Positions 2,012-63,530 of a DNA stretch of 64,000 nucleotides are shown here, piece after piece. The position numbers were made by a program, and so were the translations under genes. The DNA lies in contig JAOZUQ010000003.1 of assembly GCA_029938635.1 (NCBI GenBank), forward strand, positions 34,786 through 98,785. The letters run 5' to 3'. Source of the stretch: Candidatus Aminicenantes bacterium. Its GTDB lineage: Bacteria > Acidobacteriota > Aminicenantia > UBA2199. The first letter of the stretch is position 1. Each line of letters starts with the position of its first letter. The notes beneath the pieces are model-generated. The model saw only the letters and a program-made list of their open reading frames with translations. It ran no database searches and was not told the origin of the DNA.

Positions 2012-4222
2012 TTAAAACGGTATCACCCTGATATTGATTCCACCCTCTAGACAATAACAAAAGTTAAAATTTAGTGTGTAATAATACCTGACACCTCTTC
2101 TTTTATATTTAAGATGTTCTAAAGTTACCAATTTTTCCAATCCTTTTCGGACAGCTATTTCTTCAGGATGCCTGTCAAAATTAATAAGATTTAGATCCCC
2201 TCGATTGGAATGCCCATAAAGATAAAGATCTATTTTCTTCAGCTCTTTTATTGAAGAGATTGTTAAAGCAACACTTGAGCTGTTTGTTTTACGGATAACA
2301 TACTCACTCATAATATCCGATTTTGGGTATGGATTTCCATGAACAAGAAATGATACTCCCCTTTCAGTCCTGACTTTCACAGGATTAAAAAGTGCAACCC
2401 TCGGGAATAGGGAAAAAATAACAAATAGAAATGTAAATACGATGAATTGAAGACCCACAGGCTTTTTGAGTTCGGCTCTCCTTAGTGATAATGATATAAA
2501 TACAATTACCATAATCAAAAATATAAGATTGGGAAGATGCGAAAAGTTTCCTTCCACTTTTACAAAAGACGGGAGTATTGAAGAGAGATCGATGTTAATA
2601 TTACCCAGCTTCTGAAAGATCAGTCCACCCCTGGCCAGATAGTTGTGAGTTGTACTCTGATACAGGGTAAATGGGTTGAATATCTGGAATATAATTATGA
2701 AAGTAGAATAAAAGGGTATAAGAATAAATAATTTTTTAAATATCTTGTTTTTGCTCTCAATATAATAAATTATTACAAACAGCATAAGTGTCCATGCTAC
2801 GGGAAGAAGGTATCTGGCCTGGGGGCAATATCCGGGGCGGACAGTTGAATATCCATGATAGAGAATGTAAACAAAAGAGGCAATTGAAATTATAAGATGA
2901 GGATAATATCTCCTGAAATTTTTAAGTGCAAGGATCAACCCGGGGAAAAAGAACAAGTATATAGGGCTATACAGAATCAGTCCATCCCGTTGATCAAAGA
3001 AATAATCAAATAATGTTTCAATTCTGTTCTGAATTTTAATACTTTTCATACCCTCCAGATATTCAATTCTCTGGGATTCGGTTAGGACTCCTGTATAAAC
3101 CGACATCGGTGAAAGACTGCCATATGCAAAGTATAAATATACAAAGAAGGCCAGAATAAATGCAGCAGGAAAAACAGCAAATAACAACCCCGATCTCACA
3201 TCCCTTTCACGAATCTTCTTTATGAAAAAGAATAATGAAAATAATGAAATAAATATGAGATATTTCATTCCCCAGAATATTGTCATTCCGAGAAGGAAGC
3301 CTGCAAGAAGTATATCTTTTCTTCTGATATTATCTTTAAATAGTGAGAACCATATCGACAAAAGTATCAAAAGCAATACCTGCAATTCAGCAAAAATATG
3401 GAAAGAATAGAAAAAAACAGGTGCAGTGAACAAAAAAACAAAAAATATGTATAAAGATAATTTTTCTCTTCTCCATATTTTTAAAGACAACATATATACC
3501 AAAACTCCAAGCGAGGCTGCAAATAATCCAAGATATATCCTGATAAGAAAATAGAGTAGCGGAATGGGTATCTTCAGGAAAAAGAAAGGGATAAGAGTAA
3601 ATGATAATCCGGGGAGATGGAAAGAATACCATTTTTTAAATCCCTTTCCTACTTTAGAATGATGGGTTAACCTGTAGTTTATAAATTCTCTATATTCGTC
3701 TCTGGCATATTGATTGAAAACATTCAGGTCTCCATCCTTTGCCAGAGATTGAGATATGGCAAGATAGTGAGGTTCATCACCTGCCAGCTCCACCCCTTTT
3801 AACACAATAACAGCAGAAGCCATAATAAAGATCATCTGTGATAAGAGAAATAGTATTACCAACCTGGTGCGGAGACTTTTCCCGTTAAAAAAACCGATAA
3901 GTTTTCCAACGATCCTGTTCTTTTTGAAGATCGTATATATTGAAAAAAATAGAGTTATCAACAACAGGTTCCCGACTCTTACTTTAAAATCCGGCAGATC
4001 CCAATAAAACAAATTCATTACAAATATTAATAGCCCGGAAATAAAAGGGAAGAAATATTTGACAGATCGGAACTTTCGTCTTTTTTTAGAGAGAATTGAA
4101 TTACAAAAAGCAATAAACGGGACAAACAATAGAGGAGACCAGAATGGATAATTCAGGAAGAATTTTACAAAACCGGAAAAGGTTAAGATAATCAGAAACC
4201 ATTCGCTCCTGCTGAATTTCAT
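2012..4222 (-). CDS. Large polytopic membrane protein, putative GT-C (ArnT/PMT-like) glycosyltransferase
   Basis: 736 aa with more than 12 hydrophobic segments. The loop motif GDEPHYLAISQSLAKDGD resembles the DE-containing first periplasmic loop of GT-C enzymes. C-terminal soluble domain of about 130 aa. Confidence 0.5.
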   Translation of the reverse strand: MKFSRSEWFLIILTFSGFVKFFLNYPFWSPLLFVPFIAFCNSILSKKRRKFRSVKYFFPFISGLLIFVMNLFYWDLPDFKVRVGNLLLITLFFSIYTIFKKNRIVGKLIGFFNGKSLRTRLVILFLLSQMIFIMASAVIVLKGVELAGDEPHYLAISQSLAKDGDLNVFNQYARDEYREFINYRLTHHSKVGKGFKKWYSFHLPGLSFTLIPFFFLKIPIPLLYFLIRIYLGLFAASLGVLVYMLSLKIWRREKLSLYIFFVFLFTAPVFFYSFHIFAELQVLLLILLSIWFSLFKDNIRRKDILLAGFLLGMTIFWGMKYLIFISLFSLFFFIKKIRERDVRSGLLFAVFPAAFILAFFVYLYFAYGSLSPMSVYTGVLTESQRIEYLEGMKSIKIQNRIETLFDYFFDQRDGLILYSPIYLFFFPGLILALKNFRRYYPHLIISIASFVYILYHGYSTVRPGYCPQARYLLPVAWTLMLFVIIYYIESKNKIFKKLFILIPFYSTFIIIFQIFNPFTLYQSTTHNYLARGGLIFQKLGNINIDLSSILPSFVKVEGNFSHLPNLIFLIMVIVFISLSLRRAELKKPVGLQFIVFTFLFVIFSLFPRVALFNPVKVRTERGVSFLVHGNPYPKSDIMSEYVIRKTNSSSVALTISSIKELKKIDLYLYGHSNRGDLNLINFDRHPEEIAVRKGLEKLVTLEHLKYKRRGVRYYYTLNFNFCYCLEGGINIRVIPF

Positions 4223-4345
4223 TTTTCGATTATTGCATAACTACTTTTCTTCTACAACTATAAGCAGGATATTTATTTCAGTTAAAATAAAAATGGACAA
4301 ATAGTTTAATAAATTTCATTATATTCATGAAATGAGTTTAATGAA

Positions 4346-5968
4346 ATGAAGAGCCCAACGAAGATCTGGATAAGCCGTATTTTTGTTTATCTCTCTATCA
4401 TTATAATATTATTCATTTTTTCCCTCCATTATTATGTGAAAATTAACAGCTCTGAAATTTTCGAATCATATATAAACAGCCTCTTGAATAAAAAAGGAAA
4501 TATTTACAAAATTGATCATAATCAGGTTGATATTGATCTTTTAGGAAAACAGATAATATTAAAAAATATAGAGATATCATTTGACCGGGAACAATTGAAA
4601 AGTTCAGGTATTAATCAGAATTTTCTTTTTAATGCAAAAATCCCTTATCTTTCTATCACAGGGATCTCTTATTTCGATCTTATTTTGTTCAGAAAGATCA
4701 ATGTTGATAGAATACACTTAAAAATGGGTAATTTGAGATTGTATAATCTTCATGGAGCACCCGGTAAAGGAGAAACTTCAAAAAAACAAAAAAGGATCTC
4801 ATCTATCTCACTTGGCAGGATTACTATTGAAGATACAGATGTTGAATTTTATACTCAATTTAACTCTTCTCCGAAAATCGGAGTGGAAAATATTTTAGTA
4901 GATTCAGGAAAAATTGTGTATGATCCTGAAAAAACACCTGGAGAGAACTTTAGCAAAGGAGCTCCCGATTTAACATTTACTACCGGGAACTCCTTTTTTG
5001 TTTTTAAAAGAACCGGATATAAAGCAGAGACAGAGAGTATCAGGCTCACCACTTCAAGCTCCTCGATATCACTTAAAAACTTCAAATATGCCCCATCAAC
5101 AGAGAAAATCAGAAAGAGAATTACATCCTCAAAGGGGAGCTTTCATCGCTTCAACATTTCTGAGATAAATTTGAAAAACATTGATCTTGATGAATTAAAA
5201 GTGAATAAGAGAATTCGAGCAAGTGAATTGTATATAAAAACACCGGAAATATACGTTTTAAGAAACCGTAATATAATAAGGAAATCTAAGAAAAGGGAAA
5301 AAAGACTTCCCCAACAGATATTTCGTGAATCCAACCTTAAAGTTGAGTTGAAACTAATAAGGCTGAATAATGGAGTTATCAAATATTCCGAAATAGCTCC
5401 CGGAGAAAGAATAGCTGAATCAATATTTTTCACAGAGGTCGAATCCTCTTTGAGTGACATCACAAATTTTCCTGAAATTTTGAAGACCGGAAAAGAGTCT
5501 TTTTTAGCAATTTCGGCTAAGTTAATGGGAAAGAGTACTTTGAAAGGGAAGATCGCTATTCCCATTAATAACAAAGAAAACAGATTTTCATTCTCAGGAT
5601 CTCTGGAGAAAACAAATGCACATATATTCAATAATTTCCTGAAGAGAAATATCAGGGTTCGCATTAATAGTGGTGAAATCAGCCATATGGACTTCGCTGT
5701 AAAAGCTGACGAAGGAAAAGCTTCCGGGAAATTATTGCTTGCATACAGGAACCTGAAAGTAACATTATTAAGGAAACATGATCCCGCAAGGAAAAGCAGG
5801 TTCAGGACTTTCCTGGCTAATACTCTTATTTATAGAAACAACCCGACTAAGAAGTGGAGAAAGATACGGACTGGAAAGATCTCTTATGAAAGAAAATTTA
5901 AGGGATCAATATTTAATTATATGTGGAAATGTATCCTGAAAGGGATCAAATCAAGTATTAAATTATAG
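4346..5968 (+). CDS. Hypothetical membrane-anchored protein (possibly AsmA/DUF748-like)
   Basis: 540 aa with a single N-terminal TM (IWISRIFVYLSIIIILFIF) followed by a long beta-rich soluble region. I recognise no catalytic motif. Confidence 0.55.
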   Translation: MKSPTKIWISRIFVYLSIIIILFIFSLHYYVKINSSEIFESYINSLLNKKGNIYKIDHNQVDIDLLGKQIILKNIEISFDREQLKSSGINQNFLFNAKIPYLSITGISYFDLILFRKINVDRIHLKMGNLRLYNLHGAPGKGETSKKQKRISSISLGRITIEDTDVEFYTQFNSSPKIGVENILVDSGKIVYDPEKTPGENFSKGAPDLTFTTGNSFFVFKRTGYKAETESIRLTTSSSSISLKNFKYAPSTEKIRKRITSSKGSFHRFNISEINLKNIDLDELKVNKRIRASELYIKTPEIYVLRNRNIIRKSKKREKRLPQQIFRESNLKVELKLIRLNNGVIKYSEIAPGERIAESIFFTEVESSLSDITNFPEILKTGKESFLAISAKLMGKSTLKGKIAIPINNKENRFSFSGSLEKTNAHIFNNFLKRNIRVRINSGEISHMDFAVKADEGKASGKLLLAYRNLKVTLLRKHDPARKSRFRTFLANTLIYRNNPTKKWRKIRTGKISYERKFKGSIFNYMWKCILKGIKSSIKL

Positions 5969-35309: not shown

Positions 35310-36398
35310 ATGAAAAAAGTTGATCTGAGAAAACTATCTTCGGTCTCATCTGCAGAACGGGCATTCCTTACAATATACATATCTGAAAAAAGTACGAGAG
35401 AAGATGTAGAGAAAGCACTGAACATAAAAAAGAAAGTTTTAAAAAAGGGGACAGACGATTTTGAATACTTCTCTGAAAATTACAGGATAATCATGGATGA
35501 TATTGAAAAAAATCCTGTAAAAAAGGGAAACCATGCCATTTTTTGTTGTTGGGCACTCGATTATTATGAAAGAATAGCTCTCAAAATGGCTGTTGAAGAT
35601 CTGATCCGGATAGATTCATCACCCTATATTCTTCCTTTAGCTCAATTTGAAGATGAATATGAGAATTATCTTGTAATTGCAGCTTCCAATGAGAAGACTA
35701 AGATTTATATGGTTGCAGGTCAGAAGACAATAAAAGAAGATGATATTAAAGGAAATATTAAGAACCATGTAAAAGTCGGGGGCTGGTCACAACAGAGGTA
35801 TGAACGGAGACGGGATAAAGAATTTTCAGTGTATGTCAAAGACATTGTGGAAAAGATTCGGGACCTGGCCAAAGGGATCGACTTCCGCCGGATAGTCATT
35901 GTAGGCTCAAAAGAAACGATAAGGGAATTAGGAGATGTGCTGCCTGATGATCTGAAAAAACTTGTAGTGGGTGAAAAAGCTCTTGATCTGAAGAAAGATG
36001 AGAAATCTGTGAATGAAGAGATCTTCAGACTCCTTTGGGAAGAAGAGAGGAGGACAGAGAGAGAACTCTGGAACAGGACAAAGAGCCTCTACCTGAAGGG
36101 AGAATTGGGAGTGACAGGAACTTATGATGTCCTCTATTTTGCAAAAAGAGGAAGGGTCGATAGTGTTATTGTTAATAAGAATGCTGACCTTAAAGGTATC
36201 AGATGCAGGGATTGTGAAGAGTTATCAGATAGTAAAACTGACAAATGTCCCGAGTGCGGATCCTCCTCCATATTCGAGATAGATCTTGTCAATGAGATAA
36301 CAGAATTGTTGAAACTCTCCGGGGGTGAGATCGAATTTGCCGAAAATATTGATGAATTAAAAGATGCTGGAGATATTGCTGCTATATTAAGATATTAA
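35310..36398 (+). CDS. eRF1/Pelota-like (bacterial aeRF1-type) protein with an inserted zinc ribbon; GGW replaces GGQ
   Basis: 362 aa. HVKVGGWSQQRYERRR aligns with the eRF1 motif GRGGQSALRFARLR. The C-terminal GDIAAILRY matches the eRF1/Pelota terminal GGIGAILRY. A CxxC...CxxC ribbon (CRDCEE...CPECG) lies in domain 3. Confidence 0.7.
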   Translation: MKKVDLRKLSSVSSAERAFLTIYISEKSTREDVEKALNIKKKVLKKGTDDFEYFSENYRIIMDDIEKNPVKKGNHAIFCCWALDYYERIALKMAVEDLIRIDSSPYILPLAQFEDEYENYLVIAASNEKTKIYMVAGQKTIKEDDIKGNIKNHVKVGGWSQQRYERRRDKEFSVYVKDIVEKIRDLAKGIDFRRIVIVGSKETIRELGDVLPDDLKKLVVGEKALDLKKDEKSVNEEIFRLLWEEERRTERELWNRTKSLYLKGELGVTGTYDVLYFAKRGRVDSVIVNKNADLKGIRCRDCEELSDSKTDKCPECGSSSIFEIDLVNEITELLKLSGGEIEFAENIDELKDAGDIAAILRY

Positions 36399-36697
36399 GA
36401 TTCAGCTAAAAATTTTTTTACAAACTCAACATATTCTTTTGGAGGGTCTTTTAATTTTATTCCAATATCTGAAAGTTCAGGATACTTTTTATTCCAGCCT
36501 TCCCAGGCAATTTCTCCTGTTAGAATAAATTCCGTTTTATCCAGTATCAATGTTATTTTTATCTCTTCTTCAACAGGTTTTTGGGATATGGAAACACCTA
36601 AACCGTCTTCAGAAAGATCTATTAGAAATCCTTCAATTCCATTTACTATCAAAAAGGATTTCTGCCGTATTCTATTGAAGTTTCTCCTTTCCATCAT
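36395..36697 (-). CDS. Single-domain PilZ protein (c-di-GMP receptor-like)
   Basis: 100 aa with RRNFNR (RxxxR) and DLSEDGLGV (D/NxSxxG), the PilZ signatures. Confidence 0.75.
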   Translation of the reverse strand: MMERRNFNRIRQKSFLIVNGIEGFLIDLSEDGLGVSISQKPVEEEIKITLILDKTEFILTGEIAWEGWNKKYPELSDIGIKLKDPPKEYVEFVKKFLAES

Positions 36698-38715: not shown

Positions 38716-39874
38716 CGCCTTTTTCCTCCAGTTTTTTAATCCTTTCCTTCCAATCTGTTATTTCCCATCCCTTTTCATCTCCTTTTAATAATCCGATATC
38801 TTTTGCCTCTTTATGAGCAACTTTGCACAAATATTCCACAGGGGTATCGAATGTACCATTCTCACTCCATGCACGGGATGGGCATTGCAGACATAAGCCT
38901 TTCAGGAAACAGTTGCTGCATCTATTAAGATATTCCGGATTTGAAGCTTTTACTTTTAATTTTTCAGGAAAAAATTTAAAAATAGCTTCTTTGATCGTCC
39001 CGTCTTTCAGGTCATATGCAAATTCATCCGCCTTGAGGGTCAGACATGGATGAATAAATCCATAAGCATCGACACTACCTGATTGTCCTGCTCCACAGGA
39101 AAACAAATCAGGCCCGGACGGCCCGATGAACTTCTCTAAAAAATCTAATCTGGATCTTGTCAATTCTTTCTTCTCTGCATTAAGATCAGAATTGATTCTA
39201 AGAGAAGCAATTATTTTGTTTTTTGAATCCGAATCCCTCCTCTCCCTGAATTCAAAACTACCGGAATAAGATGGAGACTGATCCATCCACGGCAATGTAG
39301 ATGCCCAGGATTCGAATTCCTCTTTTTCCGATAAATTATCCGGAAGATGTATTCCCTTTACAATAAATGGAATATTAGATTTTAAGAGGAGGCCAACACC
39401 TGACCTGAATTCTTTATAAGATCCGGGGACCCGGGATACTTTCTCATATGATGACCTGCTCATCCCGTACACACTTACTTCCATCTTTTCAAGAGGTGGG
39501 ATCTTTGACAGCAGTTTTGCTATCTCTGAAGTTATTTTTCTGGCATTAGTAAATATTATCACCTTTATCCCCAGCTTCCTGGTAAATAAATAGAGCTCTG
39601 AAAAATCTTTTCTCAAAAGAGGTTCTCCACCGGTAAATCTGATTGACAACACTCCGAGATCTGCGGCCTCACTAATTATTTTTTTCCATTCAGATGTATT
39701 AAGTTCTCTTTTTTGTTCCGGAGAATTTTCAGGAATATTTATACTGCAATGGACACAATTATTATCACACCTTTCGGTGAGTTCAATATCTATATGCCCG
39801 AGCCTGTTTGAACCGGTCGTCATGAAACCATCTTCATGAGGTTTTATTTTTTCTACAAAATCTGAACCATTCAT
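38699..39874 (-). CDS. Radical SAM / SPASM-domain peptide-modifying enzyme (second of three)
   Basis: 391 aa with LTERCDNNCVHC (CxxxCxxC) and GGEPLL. C-terminal region reads CGAGQSGSVDAYGFIHPC...CSNCFLKGLCLQCPSRAW. ATGA overlap with the upstream gene. Confidence 0.85.
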   Translation of the reverse strand: MNGSDFVEKIKPHEDGFMTTGSNRLGHIDIELTERCDNNCVHCSINIPENSPEQKRELNTSEWKKIISEAADLGVLSIRFTGGEPLLRKDFSELYLFTRKLGIKVIIFTNARKITSEIAKLLSKIPPLEKMEVSVYGMSRSSYEKVSRVPGSYKEFRSGVGLLLKSNIPFIVKGIHLPDNLSEKEEFESWASTLPWMDQSPSYSGSFEFRERRDSDSKNKIIASLRINSDLNAEKKELTRSRLDFLEKFIGPSGPDLFSCGAGQSGSVDAYGFIHPCLTLKADEFAYDLKDGTIKEAIFKFFPEKLKVKASNPEYLNRCSNCFLKGLCLQCPSRAWSENGTFDTPVEYLCKVAHKEAKDIGLLKGDEKGWEITDWKERIKKLEEKGDDRDR

Positions 39875-41832
39875 TTTTTTTTTAATTTAATAACTTTCGT
39901 AAAGTCCTTTACTACCCTGGCGATCTCTCCACTCTTATCAAATTTAATGATATAGAACGGAACTGCATTTACCAACCGGTCCAGTGTTGCAAGTGTTTTA
40001 TCCCACCAGTCCGAAGTGACCAGCGGCTGCATGATCCGGGGCATGATCCTTGTGATGATCTCCTGGGTGTCCTCTAACGTTATGATCTCATTCACATTCG
40101 ATTTTTCAAGAAACAATATTGCTTTGAGGGGCACTTCTCCGTTTGAGACCTCATGGATATCCCCATGGCTCCATGTACCATGGACCCGGAATCCATCCGG
40201 CCATTTCCGGATGATATTGTATTCATCACAGAGGAGCGTGCCCTCTTCTTCAAGAAGGGTAGAAATAGTAGACTTTCCGGCTGTCGATTTGCCGGAAAAA
40301 ACAAGTCCCGTTTGGTCAATAACCATGGCCGAGGAATGGAGTGTCAGAGCCTCCCGGTCGGCAAAGATCCGGCTCAGCAGCAGTTGGTCCGAAGGGAATA
40401 GGGAAAGTGCATGCTGTGGGGATCCGAAGATCAGATCGTGACTTTTGAGATAAATTTCAGCCAGGGTGTGATCATCATTAAATATTACAATACGCCTTGG
40501 GGGATCATTTTCTCTGTTTTCAAGTATCTCCCTGTACAACCACGATTTGTTCTTCCGGTATATTGCCCAGGGGATCTTCCTGTATATCTCTTCTCCCGAA
40601 TCTTCAATAGACAATTCGGGGATTTCAAAGTGATACCGGATCAATACAATGTCATCGCCCGGTTCTTCCATCCTGAATTGTTCAAATTTCGGGAGGAAGG
40701 AATCTTTTTCAAACGGAAGGTCGGAATCCACCTGAATGGTCACGCCACCGATCTCATAATATCGTCTGTGGTTTTTTTCCCACTCTTTTTTATATTCCAC
40801 TTTTTTGTCTGTAATTTCACATAAATATTTTAAAGGTAAATCATACTTCCCATGTTCCAGCCATGAATAGACCGGGCACCAATTACACAATTCTTTATTA
40901 TCACAGGATCCGCAATGCTCCCAATACTCCTCTCCCCCCCTGATTTTCTCTCCGATAGAGGGGATAAATTTTTCCCACCCTTCTTCAAATGTCCCCTTTA
41001 TAATGTCATATCTAAGTTCAGGATCTTTGACAAAGATACAATTGGCCATTTTCCCGTAAGGATCGATATGGAATGAGTTCCTTGTGGAGACACATTTATG
41101 AAGAAGTCTGTCATCTGGATTTGTTTTAAGATTATTCTGATCACTCTCAAGCAATTTGTGTTTTGAATTATATCTGGGATTGGGGGGATCAAGCGCAACC
41201 ACCTGTTCCGGTGTCAGCCGCTGATCTTCGATCTCCCGGTTCATAGATGCTGATCGGCAGGCGGAATAAAAAAGCCAGGATGATCCGATCCGCCAGGAGG
41301 AGCTCAGGGATTTTGCCAGTTTGGTCATTTCATCCAGCTGATGGAAACTGTCTTTCATCGGTACGACCTGAACAGTAAATCCCGCTCCCGCCTCTTTTAA
41401 AAAAGAGAATCCTTTCATGGCTTTCTCAAATGATCCTGGTTCCCGGGTGATGTGGTCATGGACCGCTGCATCCGCCCCGTAAAGGGCAATCATTTTACTC
41501 CCCTTCCGTTTCATCAATTCTGCAATTTCCGGAGTGATTTTAGTCCCGTTGGTATTGATCGTATATGTTAAGAACTTTGAAGTGAGGTAATCGAATATCT
41601 CAGTAAAATCAGGATGGAGCATGGGTTCCCCACCGGAGACCACCCACTCACGTGTTCCCATGGCCCTGGCCTGATCAAAAATCATTTTCCACTGATCAAA
41701 TCTCAGCTCACTCTTTTTTGCTGTTGAATCCTCACCCAGCCAGAGCCAGCAATGTCTGCAGGTGTTGTTGCAGCGGTAAGTCAGGTCAATGCTTCCCTCC
41801 AGGGGAAGTCTCGGGATCTTGTTATTACTCAT
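39871..41832 (-). CDS. Fusion protein: N-terminal radical SAM/SPASM enzyme plus C-terminal HPr-kinase-like P-loop domain
   Basis: 653 aa with C21/C25/C28 in LTYRCNNTCRHC. SPASM-type Cys at 247, 265, 307, 310, 316, 319 and 338. The C-terminal 300 aa or so contain LHSSAMVIDQTGLVFSGKSTAGKSTISTLLEEEGTLLCDEYNII. The P-loop maps to nt 40267-40293 and matches the HprK-like pattern LHA.av...G.a.lf.G.SG.GKSTl...L...G..l.sDd. Confidence 0.85.
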   Translation of the reverse strand: MSNNKIPRLPLEGSIDLTYRCNNTCRHCWLWLGEDSTAKKSELRFDQWKMIFDQARAMGTREWVVSGGEPMLHPDFTEIFDYLTSKFLTYTINTNGTKITPEIAELMKRKGSKMIALYGADAAVHDHITREPGSFEKAMKGFSFLKEAGAGFTVQVVPMKDSFHQLDEMTKLAKSLSSSWRIGSSWLFYSACRSASMNREIEDQRLTPEQVVALDPPNPRYNSKHKLLESDQNNLKTNPDDRLLHKCVSTRNSFHIDPYGKMANCIFVKDPELRYDIIKGTFEEGWEKFIPSIGEKIRGGEEYWEHCGSCDNKELCNWCPVYSWLEHGKYDLPLKYLCEITDKKVEYKKEWEKNHRRYYEIGGVTIQVDSDLPFEKDSFLPKFEQFRMEEPGDDIVLIRYHFEIPELSIEDSGEEIYRKIPWAIYRKNKSWLYREILENRENDPPRRIVIFNDDHTLAEIYLKSHDLIFGSPQHALSLFPSDQLLLSRIFADREALTLHSSAMVIDQTGLVFSGKSTAGKSTISTLLEEEGTLLCDEYNIIRKWPDGFRVHGTWSHGDIHEVSNGEVPLKAILFLEKSNVNEIITLEDTQEIITRIMPRIMQPLVTSDWWDKTLATLDRLVNAVPFYIIKFDKSGEIARVVKDFTKVIKLKKK

Positions 41833-41900
41833 TTTAACGGCAGATCTTAATTTGTTTTTAACAATTAATCAAGTTCAGCAAATCCGGATCTATATTTAAA

Positions 41901-42677
41901 TTATACCCTTTTCTTTAATAAAGCGCAGGCATTGTTGGAATTTTCAGGAAAGATAAAATCGATCACCTGAAAACCGGCTTCATCGAATTCAGAGATCAGA
42001 TTTTCCTTGTCATAGAATGCATGAAGGAATTCAAGGTTATCTTTGTAGATATCTCCTTTTTCATATGTTGTATTTCCGAATGTGATTCGGGATAAAAACT
42101 TCCCCAGTTTCCACCTCAAATTTCCCCCTGCAGCTGATGGATTCCAGTAGAAAAAGCAGGCGATAAAACCATCCGATTTCAACATCTCACCAGACCATTT
42201 CAGGTTTTTTATACGTTTCTTCCTTCCGGGAATCGATGAATAGATGGAGCAGGAGTACCATATAACATCAAAACTATCAGGATCGACATTAATATTGGCT
42301 ATATCTGAATGAATTCCCTTGATCTCAATTCCGGCCTCTTTTCCATTTTCAATAGCTTTATCCAAAAGTTCCTTCACAAAATCGACACCGGTGATATTAA
42401 ACCCGGCCTTACCCAGGACAAGCGCTTCCCGGCCTCCCCCGATTCCGAGCAGGAGTAGATTCCCTTTTTTTTTATTTAATAATTCAAAGACCTCTTTTTC
42501 TCCCGGGAAAAACCCCTGATTTACAAAATTTTTATCCCCCCAGAATTCTGCAGAATTTGTTGTATTGTAGGATTGCTTACTAATTCTTTTTAGTTGAGAA
42601 GGTCTGAGAAGAAAAACCGGTGAGTTCTGAAGAAACTTTCCTAATTTATTTATAAAAAAGGTAATTGGAATTCTCAA
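41901..42677 (-). CDS. Class I SAM-dependent methyltransferase
   Basis: 258 aa with motif I LLLGIGGGREALVLGKAGFNITGVDF. Apparent TTG start; there is no in-frame ATG near the N-terminus. Confidence 0.8.
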   Translation of the reverse strand: MRIPITFFINKLGKFLQNSPVFLLRPSQLKRISKQSYNTTNSAEFWGDKNFVNQGFFPGEKEVFELLNKKKGNLLLLGIGGGREALVLGKAGFNITGVDFVKELLDKAIENGKEAGIEIKGIHSDIANINVDPDSFDVIWYSCSIYSSIPGRKKRIKNLKWSGEMLKSDGFIACFFYWNPSAAGGNLRWKLGKFLSRITFGNTTYEKGDIYKDNLEFLHAFYDKENLISEFDEAGFQVIDFIFPENSNNACALLKKRV

Positions 42678-42707: not shown

Positions 42708-42911
42708 TTAACTTTGACCCCTGGCGTTGCAGGCAGCACAATTTGCAGTATCGACCGCACCGCATTCCTGAATAGTATTTCCCGGATCAAGTGGAATTCC
42801 TGCACCATTCTGTTTGCACCGGGTAAGAATAAATTCCTCGGGAGTCAGGCGGCTGAGTATTTTTAATTTCGGGGTTGTCCACTTTACTCGTTTCATATTT
42901 GTAATATACAT
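42708..42911 (-). CDS. Candidate RiPP precursor peptide (67 aa, or 62 aa from the ATG at 42896)
   Basis: First gene of the operon. Sequence is MYITNMKRVKWTTPKLKILSRLTPEEFILTRCKQNGAGIPLDPGNTIQECGAVDTANCAACNARGQS. The N-terminal half is basic and Leu-rich with a WxxPxL motif. The C-terminal half is G/A/N/D/T-rich with Cys at 32, 50, 58 and 61 and a terminal Ser. Confidence 0.6.
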   Translation of the reverse strand: MYITNMKRVKWTTPKLKILSRLTPEEFILTRCKQNGAGIPLDPGNTIQECGAVDTANCAACNARGQS

Positions 42912-42931
42912 AATATAACCTTTGATGTCAA
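42903..42931 (-). promoter_or_regulatory. Possible sigma70-like promoter of the RiPP operon
   Basis: Reverse strand reads TTGACA (42931-42926), 17 nt, TATATT (42908-42903). If used, transcription would start about at the second ATG (42896). An alternative, TTCAAA-17 nt-AATAAT, lies further upstream, so this is uncertain. Confidence 0.3.
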
Positions 42932-62150: not shown

Positions 62151-62614
62151 AGCTTTCAAATATAATTGATCAGGAACTTCTCCTGATAGAACTTAATTCT
62201 GACAACACAAATGAAGTTCTGAAGGAAATGACAGAGGTTCTAAAAGAGAAGAACAAAATATCAGACAGTAAAACAATCCTTATTAAGTTATTGGAAAGGG
62301 AAAAACTTGCATCAACATCAATCGGGAAAAATACAGCAATACCACATGCAAAGATAAGAGACCTGAAGAATCCGATCATTATGATTGCAATATGCAAAAA
62401 AGGATTTTTATACCACCCAAGTGATGAAGAGCCTGTGCATCTTATTATTCTTGTGCTTTCACCATCCGGAGCACCAGCATTGCATCTCCAGATACTTGCA
62501 GCTGCTGCATCTTTAATTAAAAAACCGGGAGATCTTATTGGAGAATTATTAAAAGCGAAGAACAATACTCAACTTGCGGAAACGATAATAAAATTTGAAG
62601 AAAAAAATGATTAG
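62147..62614 (+). CDS. ptsN: PTS EIIA(Ntr)-type regulatory protein
   Basis: 155 aa with the active-site His context STSIGKNTAIPHAKI. GTGA overlap with hpf. Confidence 0.85.
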   Translation: MKLSNIIDQELLLIELNSDNTNEVLKEMTEVLKEKNKISDSKTILIKLLEREKLASTSIGKNTAIPHAKIRDLKNPIIMIAICKKGFLYHPSDEEPVHLIILVLSPSGAPALHLQILAAAASLIKKPGDLIGELLKAKNNTQLAETIIKFEEKND

Positions 62615-63530
62615 ATCCAAAAAAGGAGTCGAAATAAGTAGTTTATTGAATGTCCCGGATATAAGCATAAAAAAAACCTTCAATGAGAAGTGGCTGAATA
62701 AAAAAATAACACATCCGGACACACAGAAACCCGGGCTGGCTCTGGCAGGATACATGGAATTTGTGAACAGAGGAAGCCTTCAAATATTCGGAAAAACTGA
62801 AACAGGATATTTGAACAGCTTGAAACCTGCTGAGTGTAAAAAAAGCCTGGATGGTTTTATTTCTTTGAAGCCTCCTGCTGTTATCATAGCTGAAGAACAG
62901 AAATTAAAACCTGCAATAATTGAGATACTTAATATTAACAGAATATCTGTTCTGGTCTCTGACCTGAAATCATCACTTCTGATATCAAGGACATCTTCAT
63001 TTCTATTCAAACACTTTTCAAAAAAAGTAAGGATCAATGGTGTCCTGATGGATATAATGGGACAGGGTATACTCATAAGAGGTGAATCAGGTATAGGGAA
63101 AAGTGAAACTGCAATGGAACTTATCAAGAAAGGGCATCAACTCATTTCTGATGACCTTATTGAATTCTATCTTGATTCAAATGACGAGCCAGTCGGGAAA
63201 TATATAGATTCTATAAAAAAATGGATTGAAGTAAGAGGTTTGGGGATAATAAACATTGTTGACATGTTTGGGTTTGGAGCAATGCTTGAAGAGAAGAAAC
63301 TTGATCTTGTTATCGATATGGAGAGCTGGGATCCAAAGAAAAAATATGACAGGCTCGGTGAAGAAAGTTTATATTTTCCGATCCTCGGCAAAGATATTCC
63401 AATGTTTAAACTGCCTGTATCTGTAGGAAGAAACCTTTCAACATTGATTGAAATTACTGTAAAATATTTCATATCCAGAAAAAGCGGAAGTGAATCATTT
63501 CTGGAACATTTAAACAGGGAAAAGAGATGA
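62607..63530 (+). CDS. hprK: HPr kinase/phosphorylase
   Basis: P-loop GESGIGKSETAMELIKKGHQLISDD and a downstream signature similar to IEVRGLGIINI. First ATG is at 62607; the track start at 62595 is a TTG. Confidence 0.9.
   Translation: MIRSKKGVEISSLLNVPDISIKKTFNEKWLNKKITHPDTQKPGLALAGYMEFVNRGSLQIFGKTETGYLNSLKPAECKKSLDGFISLKPPAVIIAEEQKLKPAIIEILNINRISVLVSDLKSSLLISRTSSFLFKHFSKKVRINGVLMDIMGQGILIRGESGIGKSETAMELIKKGHQLISDDLIEFYLDSNDEPVGKYIDSIKKWIEVRGLGIINIVDMFGFGAMLEEKKLDLVIDMESWDPKKKYDRLGEESLYFPILGKDIPMFKLPVSVGRNLSTLIEITVKYFISRKSGSESFLEHLNREKR

Follow-up and report, generated by a model that had tools for sequence, protein, structure and literature searches.

A radical-SAM/SPASM enzyme fused to a ScmC-family module of HprK/PEPCK fold, a candidate precursor serine kinase, in Candidatus Aminicenantes

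We analyzed a stretch of 64,000 nucleotides (hereafter the window) from Candidatus Aminicenantes bacterium (GenBank assembly GCA_029938635.1, contig JAOZUQ010000003.1, positions 34,786 to 98,785), which contains a gene cluster for a peptide made on the ribosome and modified after translation (RiPP). One gene of this cluster encodes a 653-amino acid (aa) protein in which a radical S-adenosylmethionine (rSAM)/SPASM enzyme is followed by a P-loop module of the ScmC family. The protein is probably a genuine bifunctional RiPP maturase, whose ScmC module, rigidly joined to the rSAM/SPASM half, would phosphorylate the C-terminal serine of the precursor peptide. That the fused enzyme has a precursor serine kinase built in is inferred by analogy with characterized peptide kinases, and on the same analogy the fusion would couple two steps of maturation.

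The gene is read in a single frame on the minus strand, and translation of the open reading frame (ORF) yields a complete rSAM/SPASM module and then the C-terminal P-loop module, as a preliminary description of this DNA had proposed. The 44-residue string quoted there, LHSSAMVIDQTGLVFSGKSTAGKSTISTLLEEEGTLLCDEYNII, is found in the protein, and the P-loop GKSTAGKST was reproduced by translation of positions 40267–40293. The span of 39871–40770 given for the C-terminal domain was likewise right: the stand-alone homologues P0006, P0018 and P0074 begin precisely at the HRRYY junction, and we therefore place the module boundary at approximately residue 353. In the full-length AlphaFold2 (AF2) model (predicted local distance difference test (pLDDT) 88.7, predicted template modeling score (pTM) 0.84), a long helix (residues 335–355) is followed at once by the strand with which the kinase module begins. 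The pLDDT at the junction is 92–96, so that no flexible linker is predicted.

Within the N-terminal module, the Radical_SAM family (PF04055) matches residues 17–171 (69.7 bits, E = 4.2e-19). The CxxxCxxC motif is formed by C21, C25 and C28, and seven SPASM-type cysteines are present (C247, C265, C307, C310, C316, C319 and C338); all are invariant among 60 full-length homologues, save C307 (59/60). With the full-length model as query, Foldseek returned SkfB, SuiB, PqqE and anSME at the top (E = 5e-12 to 1e-8). Residues 1–353 thus qualify as a radical-SAM/SPASM RiPP maturase by both cysteine motifs and fold, with the full CxxxCxxC and seven-cysteine SPASM set. Unlike the 653-aa protein, however, none of the solved SPASM maturases SuiB, SkfB, PqqE and anSME continues into a kinase-like module at its C-terminus, and Foldseek found no PDB entry that spans both halves of the fused protein (TMq at most 0.38). 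Conservation of the rSAM cysteines alongside the kinase motif indicates that both modules are under selection.

The C-terminal module consists of two lobes, a β-rich N-terminal lobe (approximately residues 354–480) and a P-loop lobe (approximately residues 483–653). A profile search against PDB sequences gave mostly generic Walker-A matches of about 24 residues to ABC transporters, with HprK entries at E values of 0.009–0.07; as this was not decisive, we relied on fold comparison. An AF2 model of residues 350–653, built on 76 sequences, reached a pLDDT of 94.9 and a pTM of 0.90. When this model was compared with the PDB in Foldseek, 46 matches reached E ≤ 1e-3, and every one of them is an ATP-dependent phosphoenolpyruvate carboxykinase (PEPCK) or HprK/P, which share a non-classical P-loop nucleotide-binding fold and are the only significant matches (next match at E = 0.17). 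The PEPCK matches span both lobes (TMq 0.41–0.49), the N-terminal lobe being more PEPCK-like than HprK-like, and the C-terminal catalytic domain of HprK matches the P-loop lobe (TMt 0.50–0.58). By the predicted structure, the nucleotide-binding lobe belongs to the HprK/PEPCK-like P-loop fold superfamily. The HprK-like P-loop domain of the preliminary description is thereby borne out, HprK/P being among the significant structural matches.

Profile hidden Markov models (HMMs) point in the same direction. An NCBIfam scan of residues 350–653 gave weak yet specific matches, with ScmC (TIGR04249) first at E = 2e-8 and 33.9 bits, followed by HprK (1.5e-3), HprK_rel_A (1.7e-3) and HprK_rel_B (6.5e-3), so that similarity to HprK is detectable at this level as well. 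In a Pfam copy without PF27840, matches to Hpr_kinase_C, PEPCK_ATP and AAA_29 were sub-threshold (E values of 0.1–0.2). PF07475 (Hpr_kinase_C) is precomputed on two fused homologues. The newer Pfam family ScmC, PF27840, is assigned to the window protein (P0230: PF04055.28 + PF27840.1) and to 80/80 homologues by precomputed annotation. By its TIGR04249 score the module is a superfamily relative rather than an equivalog.

A His-Lys-Asp-Asp motif is essential for the activity of lasso peptide kinases (reviewed in PMC9266682, PMC12639078), and H499, K520 and D536 of the window protein are conserved in 60/60 fused homologues, with position 537 being Asp in 47 and Glu in 13. In an alignment with Coxiella HprK (3tqf), His499, the Asp and the P-loop have their counterparts. 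The window protein has Glu at position 537, as does the LppK-like kinase discussed below (LLSDE). By this alignment the module contains the His-Lys-Asp-Asp/Glu catalytic set of lasso-type kinases. A further motif, HGTWSHG, is invariant in this family and absent from the LppK-like kinase.

It could be argued that the module is no kinase but a docking or chaperone domain that binds a nucleotide or the peptide tail, or an ATPase that presents the core, in place of an N-terminal RiPP recognition element (RRE). Many SPASM maturases carry such an element, and the rSAM module here has none of its own, with CxxxCxxC starting at residue 21; the two modules are also predicted to pack rigidly, as judged from the pTM of the full-length model. 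The stand-alone ScmC clusters L004 and L014, which lack the first rSAM, speak in its favor too, the module being functionally tied to rSAM chemistry. We nevertheless regard a non-kinase role as quite improbable, as 60/60 homologues retain Asp536 (the general base), His499 and the Lys and Ser of the P-loop, which goes beyond the needs of nucleotide binding, and a discrete PqqD-type RRE is already encoded in the cluster.

The branch of kinases to which the module belongs was addressed by profile-profile comparison. Paenibacillus harbors a linear polyphosphorylated peptide (LPP) system, LppA/LppK/LppB/LppS (Popov et al., Nat Commun 2026, PMC13381572). Among the loci analyzed here, L065 is a textbook lpp cluster beside a lasso cluster: its precursor YSPPMVLSQQPVRFETAQSW fits the published consensus YxxPxVLxHQxIxFETxxS, and it also has a PqqD RRE, an archaeal-type signal peptidase, an exporter and a lasso cyclase (NF033535, 415 bits). 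In hhalign, the family profile of the module aligned with the LppK-like kinase of this Paenibacillus locus (L065:9620-10444, 274 aa) over 141 columns (probability 98.4%, E = 4.5e-15); with the hprK of the window the alignment covered only a 34-column P-loop stretch (probability 73%). ScmC is the best NCBIfam match of both the window module and the LppK-like kinase. By these profile comparisons, the module lies far closer to the HprK-like peptide kinases of RiPP pathways than to the hprK of the window. It also has the testable features of the group formed by PadeK, ThcoK and LppK, namely homology, motif, a conserved acceptor Ser and the RRE/leader context.

The preliminary description had called the domain an extra, specialized copy of hprK, besides a bona fide hprK elsewhere in the window. 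The latter gene indeed exceeds the TIGR00679 cutoff and has both Hpr_kinase_N (PF02603, 3.8e-25) and Hpr_kinase_C. The first part of the claim did not stand, as the module falls in the ScmC/RiPP-kinase branch and fails the curated HprK thresholds. A Pfam scan gave no match to Hpr_kinase_N (PF02603) in the module; with these thresholds failed and this domain absent, the module is not HprK/P, from which it differs also in genomic context and in its more PEPCK-like N-terminal lobe. That it is a duplicated housekeeping HprK/P acting on HPr/Crh, to which the rSAM enzyme was joined fortuitously, would account for the weak matches to HprK models. The module is always found inside RiPP clusters and a complete hprK is present in the window, and we consider this explanation effectively refuted by the thresholds, the missing N-terminal domain and the RiPP context; hardly any credence is left for it.

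The fusion is genuine, and many uncultured anaerobes carry it. Scanning species-representative genomes, where the best match to the window has 47% identity, we found CxxxCxxC and a P-loop in one ORF of 650–725 aa at 14 of the 20 closest loci. Their hosts are Bacteroidales, Chloroflexota, Eubacteriales, Deferrimicrobium, Cytophagia, Aminicenantes, Deltaproteobacteria, Syntrophaceae, Desulfobulbaceae and the sole cultured host found, Desulfosediminicola flagellatus IMCC35005 (L020), whose fused enzyme has the P-loop GHSGAGKS. The cluster of the latter lies at about 1.2467–1.2529 Mb of NZ_CP050698.1 (approximately 6100–12200 of L020). In Actinomycetes, a locus at greater distance (L021) likewise has the rSAM motif within the one ORF, without a recognizable P-loop. 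Among the matches listed for the full-length query there are at least 119 non-self clusters (49–77% identity), all of which, save the 5′-split copy P0001, are approximately 595–700 aa and carry PF04055 and PF27840. These listed matches include archaeal carriers (Methanothrix, Methanospirillum and a euryarchaeal metagenome-assembled genome (MAG)), the closest named homologue being from a Candidatus Aminicenantes MAG (69%), and the annotation of the fused homologues goes no further than "radical SAM protein" or "MoaA/NifB/PqqE/SkfB family". The combination of Radical_SAM and ScmC is thus a common architecture, and the fused protein of the window is typical of this large, unstudied family. No paper describing the fused architecture was found in a literature search, in line with the preliminary description, which knew of no characterized example; this needs the qualification that the architecture is not rare.

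Stand-alone forms of the module also exist. A profile search of 1.84 billion representatives retrieved 994 proteins at E ≤ 1e-30, the best 150 of which comprise both fused (~650 aa) and stand-alone (~300 aa) forms; some of the 300-aa matches, on short contigs, are merely truncated fusions. In a neighbor-joining tree of the kinase module every fused form falls in one clade, within which a few stand-alone forms (L004 and L014) are nested, and a second clade is entirely stand-alone and mostly from Acidobacteriota. We considered whether the stand-alone homologues are split fusions and rejected this, since the clusters of L004 and L014 are entirely without the first rSAM.

Existence of these stand-alone genes, together with A-rich homopolymer runs near the junction (40770–40815), could suggest that the fusion is an assembly or frameshift artefact of two adjacent genes. 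A single ORF is nevertheless found in 14 independent genomes of different phyla, and all but one of the clusters listed share its length and architecture. The predicted junction is a continuous, high-confidence transition from helix to strand, and the stand-alone forms sit in clusters without the first rSAM rather than being split genes. With one ORF conserved in bacteria and archaea, a reading as separate genes is not supported; we rejected an artefact on the basis of this conservation across phyla and judge it exceedingly unlikely.

The candidate acceptor follows from the precursor peptides. The precursor of the window, MKRVKWTTPKLKILSRLTPEEFILTRCKQNGAGIPLDPGNTIQECGAVDTANCAACNARGQS, has the leader motifs WxxPxL and PEExxL..CK, four Cys in the core and Ser as its last residue. 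NCBIfam and Pfam scans of this peptide gave no model matches. The mechanically called ORF extends to 42911 (67 aa), and a second ATG at 42896 gives 62 aa, the length of the orthologue in the syntenic locus L001. With jackhmmer we retrieved 39 related, alignable small ORFs in 34 loci, all adjoining the kinase module, which have in common [W/Y]xxPx[L/V/I], PEExxL..CK and two or three further Cys. A terminal Ser is present in 38 of these 39 precursors, compared with 11% of the background small ORFs of the same loci; as the 39 precursors are homologous, they do not amount to 39 independent observations. Apart from the terminal Ser, the alignment of the 39 precursors shows no conserved Ser or Thr, and in 28/39 the last Cys lies 5–6 residues from the C-terminus. 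The leaders differ with the type of kinase: at fused-type loci Trp is found in 16/16 leaders with a recognizable motif (WxxPxL; one further peptide is without a match), whereas at loci with a stand-alone kinase 19/22 have Tyr (YxxPx[LVI]; e.g., L023:9740-9913). This parallels the discrimination between Trp and Tyr reported for the RREs of paeninodin and LPP (PMC13381572).

From the above, the following order of events can be proposed. The PqqD protein would bind the WxxPxL leader. In the manner of PadeK and ThcoK with lasso precursors, the ScmC module would use ATP for phosphorylation, or possibly polyphosphorylation, of the C-terminal Ser at its hydroxyl. The three rSAM/SPASM enzymes of the cluster would modify the Cys-containing core, the fusion holding the tail of the peptide while the radical module acts nearby; the short distance between the last Cys and the terminal Ser in most precursors suggests that the tail would thus be held near the radical site. 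The signal peptidase I (SpI)-like peptidase would then remove the leader, possibly only after phosphorylation, as in LPP.

Several observations weigh against phosphorylation of the terminal Ser by the module. Besides the shared descent of the precursors, the one from Desulfosediminicola (L020:6107-6274) ends in Cys (…CESVGVC) and is the only one without a terminal Ser. The top Foldseek matches are PEPCK, a small-molecule kinase rather than a protein kinase. Scores against curated models are low: the 33.9 bits for TIGR04249 fall short of the equivalog cutoff of 125 bits, the similarity to HprK is weak with 11.7 bits for Hpr_kinase_C (PF07475; cutoff 33.3), and TIGR00679 gives 17.8 bits (cutoff 240). 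Our literature search found no paper that gives ScmC a function. Finally LppK, the closest characterized relative examined, targets Ser3 of the core instead of a C-terminal Ser, and the acceptor site is therefore not fixed within the superfamily.

This last point, the coverage of both lobes by PEPCK as the best Foldseek match, and the family-invariant HGTWSHG motif, whose absence from the LppK-like kinase suggests a different acceptor pocket, leave some room for a true phosphotransferase with another acceptor, such as a Ser or Thr in the core, the C-terminal carboxylate or a non-peptide substrate. In the carboxylate variant an acyl-phosphate would be formed for later cyclization or esterification, which fits the PEPCK-like fold and the neighboring methyltransferase. 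Such an acceptor is unlikely in our view, considering that the terminal Ser is the only conserved Ser/Thr across the precursors and that the characterized relatives from lasso clusters phosphorylate a conserved C-terminal Ser. Phosphorylation of the terminal Ser thus remains the reading that we prefer.

Comparison with known systems places the cluster between several of them. In the LPP system, Ser3 of the core is the residue that LppK polyphosphorylates. Leader removal depends on phosphorylation and is carried out by LppS, an SpI-like peptidase, with LppB as the RRE that presents it; the system was described as restricted to Bacillota (PMC13381572). LPP and the window cluster have in common a precursor whose leader contains [Y/W]xxPx[L/V], a kinase of the HprK-like type, a discrete RRE of the PqqD type and an SpI-like peptidase of the archaeal type. 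They share the order kinase, RRE, peptidase (K..B-S), the position of the precursor varying among related loci, and the peptidases of L065 and the window both match TIGR02228. The S24/S26 peptidase of the window is 28% identical to the LppS-like protein of L065 (BLASTP, E = 4e-14); no alignment was obtained by BLASTP between the window PqqD and the LppB-like RRE, which are both assigned to the PqqD family by HMM only. Unlike in LPP, the kinase of the window is fused to an rSAM/SPASM enzyme, two more rSAM/SPASM genes (three such enzymes in total) and a methyltransferase are present, and the cluster has no MsbA-like exporter or NTP-transferase. The window leader WTTPKLKILSRLTPEEFILTRCK fails the LPP consensus, and the core is of a Cys-containing type with a terminal Ser, in contrast to the phosphorylated Ser3 of LPP. 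The hosts differ as well, being uncultured anaerobes and methanogens for the fusion and Bacillota for LPP. The core gene set of LPP is thus present, yet the cluster is not an LPP cluster sensu stricto, as leader consensus and accessory genes differ.

The kinases PadeK, ThcoK and SyanK act on the linear precursor, where an extremely conserved Ser at the C-terminus is phosphorylated on its hydroxyl (reviewed in PMC9266682, PMC12639078). They share with the ScmC module the P-loop HprK-like fold family, the His-Lys-Asp-Asp motif and the conserved C-terminal Ser of the precursor, the comparison with PadeK being drawn from published descriptions. These kinases are stand-alone and belong to lasso clusters, which also encode a B2 protease and a macrolactam cyclase, whereas the window cluster has no lasso genes. 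The SynChlorMet cassette (TIGR04249/PF27840) is similar in combining ScmC with the PqqD homologue ScmD and the rSAM/SPASM enzymes ScmE and ScmF, and the ScmD, ScmE and ScmF models match proteins of the window cluster weakly. In SynChlorMet, however, ScmC is a separate gene, while in the window it forms the C-terminal half of a third rSAM enzyme. The cluster is an LPP-like A/K/B/S core plus radical-SAM chemistry, and a three-rSAM relative of the ScmC/D/E/F cassette.

The genes of the cluster are listed in Table 1. On the minus strand the order is promoter-like site, precursor, methyltransferase, fused rSAM–ScmC gene, rSAM/SPASM, PqqD, S24/S26 peptidase and rSAM/SPASM. This order is kept in L001, the closest syntenic locus (64% identity). 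The second rSAM/SPASM gene comes after the kinase-bearing gene in most related loci, and the methyltransferase is found in only some of the related clusters (L001, L006, L007, L012 and L016).

Table 1. Positions in the window of the fused gene, its modules and motifs, the other cluster genes and hprK.
Feature	Position	Strand	Basis
Promoter-like site TTGACA-17-TATATT	42903..42931	-	Best of 7-kb scan, 11/12; consensus match only
Precursor peptide gene, 62 aa from second ATG	42708..42896	-	ORF list; L001 orthologue 62 aa
Class I SAM-dependent methyltransferase, 258 aa	41901..42677	-	Methyltransf_25, Methyltransf_11
Fused rSAM–ScmC gene	39871-41832	-	Single unbroken 653-aa frame
Radical-SAM/SPASM module	40774..41832	-	Residues 1-353; PF04055 4.2e-19; invariant Cys (C307 59/60); Foldseek
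ScmC-family HprK/PEPCK-fold P-loop module	39871..40773	-	Residues 354-653 + stop
His499 codon (LHSS), His of His-Lys-Asp-Asp motif	40336..40338	-	60/60 and 76/76 conserved
Walker-A G514-K-S-T-A-G-K520-S-T522	40267..40293	-	Translation; G514, G519, K520, S521 conserved 60/60
Asp536-Glu537 codons (LLCDEY), counterpart of Asp-Asp pair	40222..40227	-	D536 60/60; 537 always acidic
Second radical-SAM/SPASM enzyme, 391 aa	38699..39874	-	PF04055 3.2e-19
PqqD-family RiPP recognition element, 99 aa	38416..38715	-	PF05402 2.1e-15; lasso_PqqD_Bac 1.5e-8; ScmD 1.2e-6
Archaeal-type signal-peptidase-I-like (S24/S26) putative leader peptidase, 168 aa	37899..38405	-	TIGR02228 sigpep_I_arch 3.6e-13; SipW 9.7e-7
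Third radical-SAM/SPASM enzyme, 374 aa	36785..37909	-	PF04055 4.8e-21; weak SPASM match; conserved in related loci
Housekeeping hprK	62607-63530		TIGR00679 300.8 bits vs cutoff 240; Hpr_kinase_N + Hpr_kinase_C

Some features of the region were noted in passing. The total of promoter-like matches in the 7-kb region is not above the expectation from shuffled sequence. The promoter-like site overlaps the first ATG of the 67-aa precursor ORF (42894–42911 region), and the precursor mRNA may be nearly leaderless. The ATG with which the next rSAM gene starts shares bases with the TGA stop codon of the fused gene (ATGA, 39871–39874), which suggests translational coupling of the two. The [G + C] content across the fused gene (window positions 40001–42000) is 0.445, compared with 0.37–0.38 in the flanking 2-kb bins, a difference in composition that horizontal acquisition may have left behind. 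Flanking the cluster are a bacterial eRF1-like gene (baeRF family 10/VLRF1-like) with a C-terminal zinc ribbon (35310–36398, plus strand) and a small PilZ-domain gene (36395–36697, minus strand); a PilZ gene is found near the L001 cluster as well.

Related loci showed further variation. In L001 (L001:9596-14642) each of the three rSAM genes is broken into two ORFs, with the kinase module, PqqD and peptidase intact, which could reflect sequencing frameshifts or decay of the radical enzymes. A Bacteroidales MAG contig (L002:1-10421) has two complete fused rSAM–ScmC genes, two PqqD/S26 pairs and three tandem precursor genes (3938–4108, 4335–4508 and 5061–5240), and looks like a duplicated or diversifying cluster. 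In clusters of the Acidobacteriota type the SpI/S26-like peptidase forms the N-terminus of a giant ORF of 2100–3100 aa, an unusual architecture for a leader peptidase (L023:10854-20108; also L024, L027, L032–L035, L038, L046 and L051). The giant ORF of L023 has approximately 10 DUF11 repeats, CARDB and a C-terminal gingipain-like Peptidase_C25.

Phosphorylation is rare among ribosomal natural products, and to our knowledge the characterized HprK-like peptide kinases are all stand-alone and come from lasso/LPP pathways of Bacillota and Proteobacteria. The clusters described here might, as a tentative reading that we hold with less confidence than the bifunctional maturase itself, represent an undescribed RiPP class of radical-SAM-crosslinked, Cys-containing peptides, the C-terminal Ser of which is (poly)phosphorylated by a kinase built into the maturase. 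Such peptides would occur widely among methanogenic archaea and uncultured anaerobic bacteria, and the class would form an evolutionary bridge between the LPP/paeninodin systems of Bacillota and the orphan SynChlorMet cassette; a phosphorylated tail would serve to gate, or to position, radical crosslinking and the SpI-type removal of the leader. The architecture is abundant in databases and its domain already named in Pfam, and the value of the finding therefore lies not in rarity but in a testable function and an acceptor site. The orphan ScmC family gains such a function, with a precise acceptor residue named, and a precursor family with [W/Y]xxPxL, PEExxL, CK and a terminal Ser is identified for its cassettes. 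If true, these peptides would be a new class of phosphorylated, radical-crosslinked natural products, and the fused enzyme would be a case in nature where one polypeptide couples two maturation steps of unrelated chemistry.

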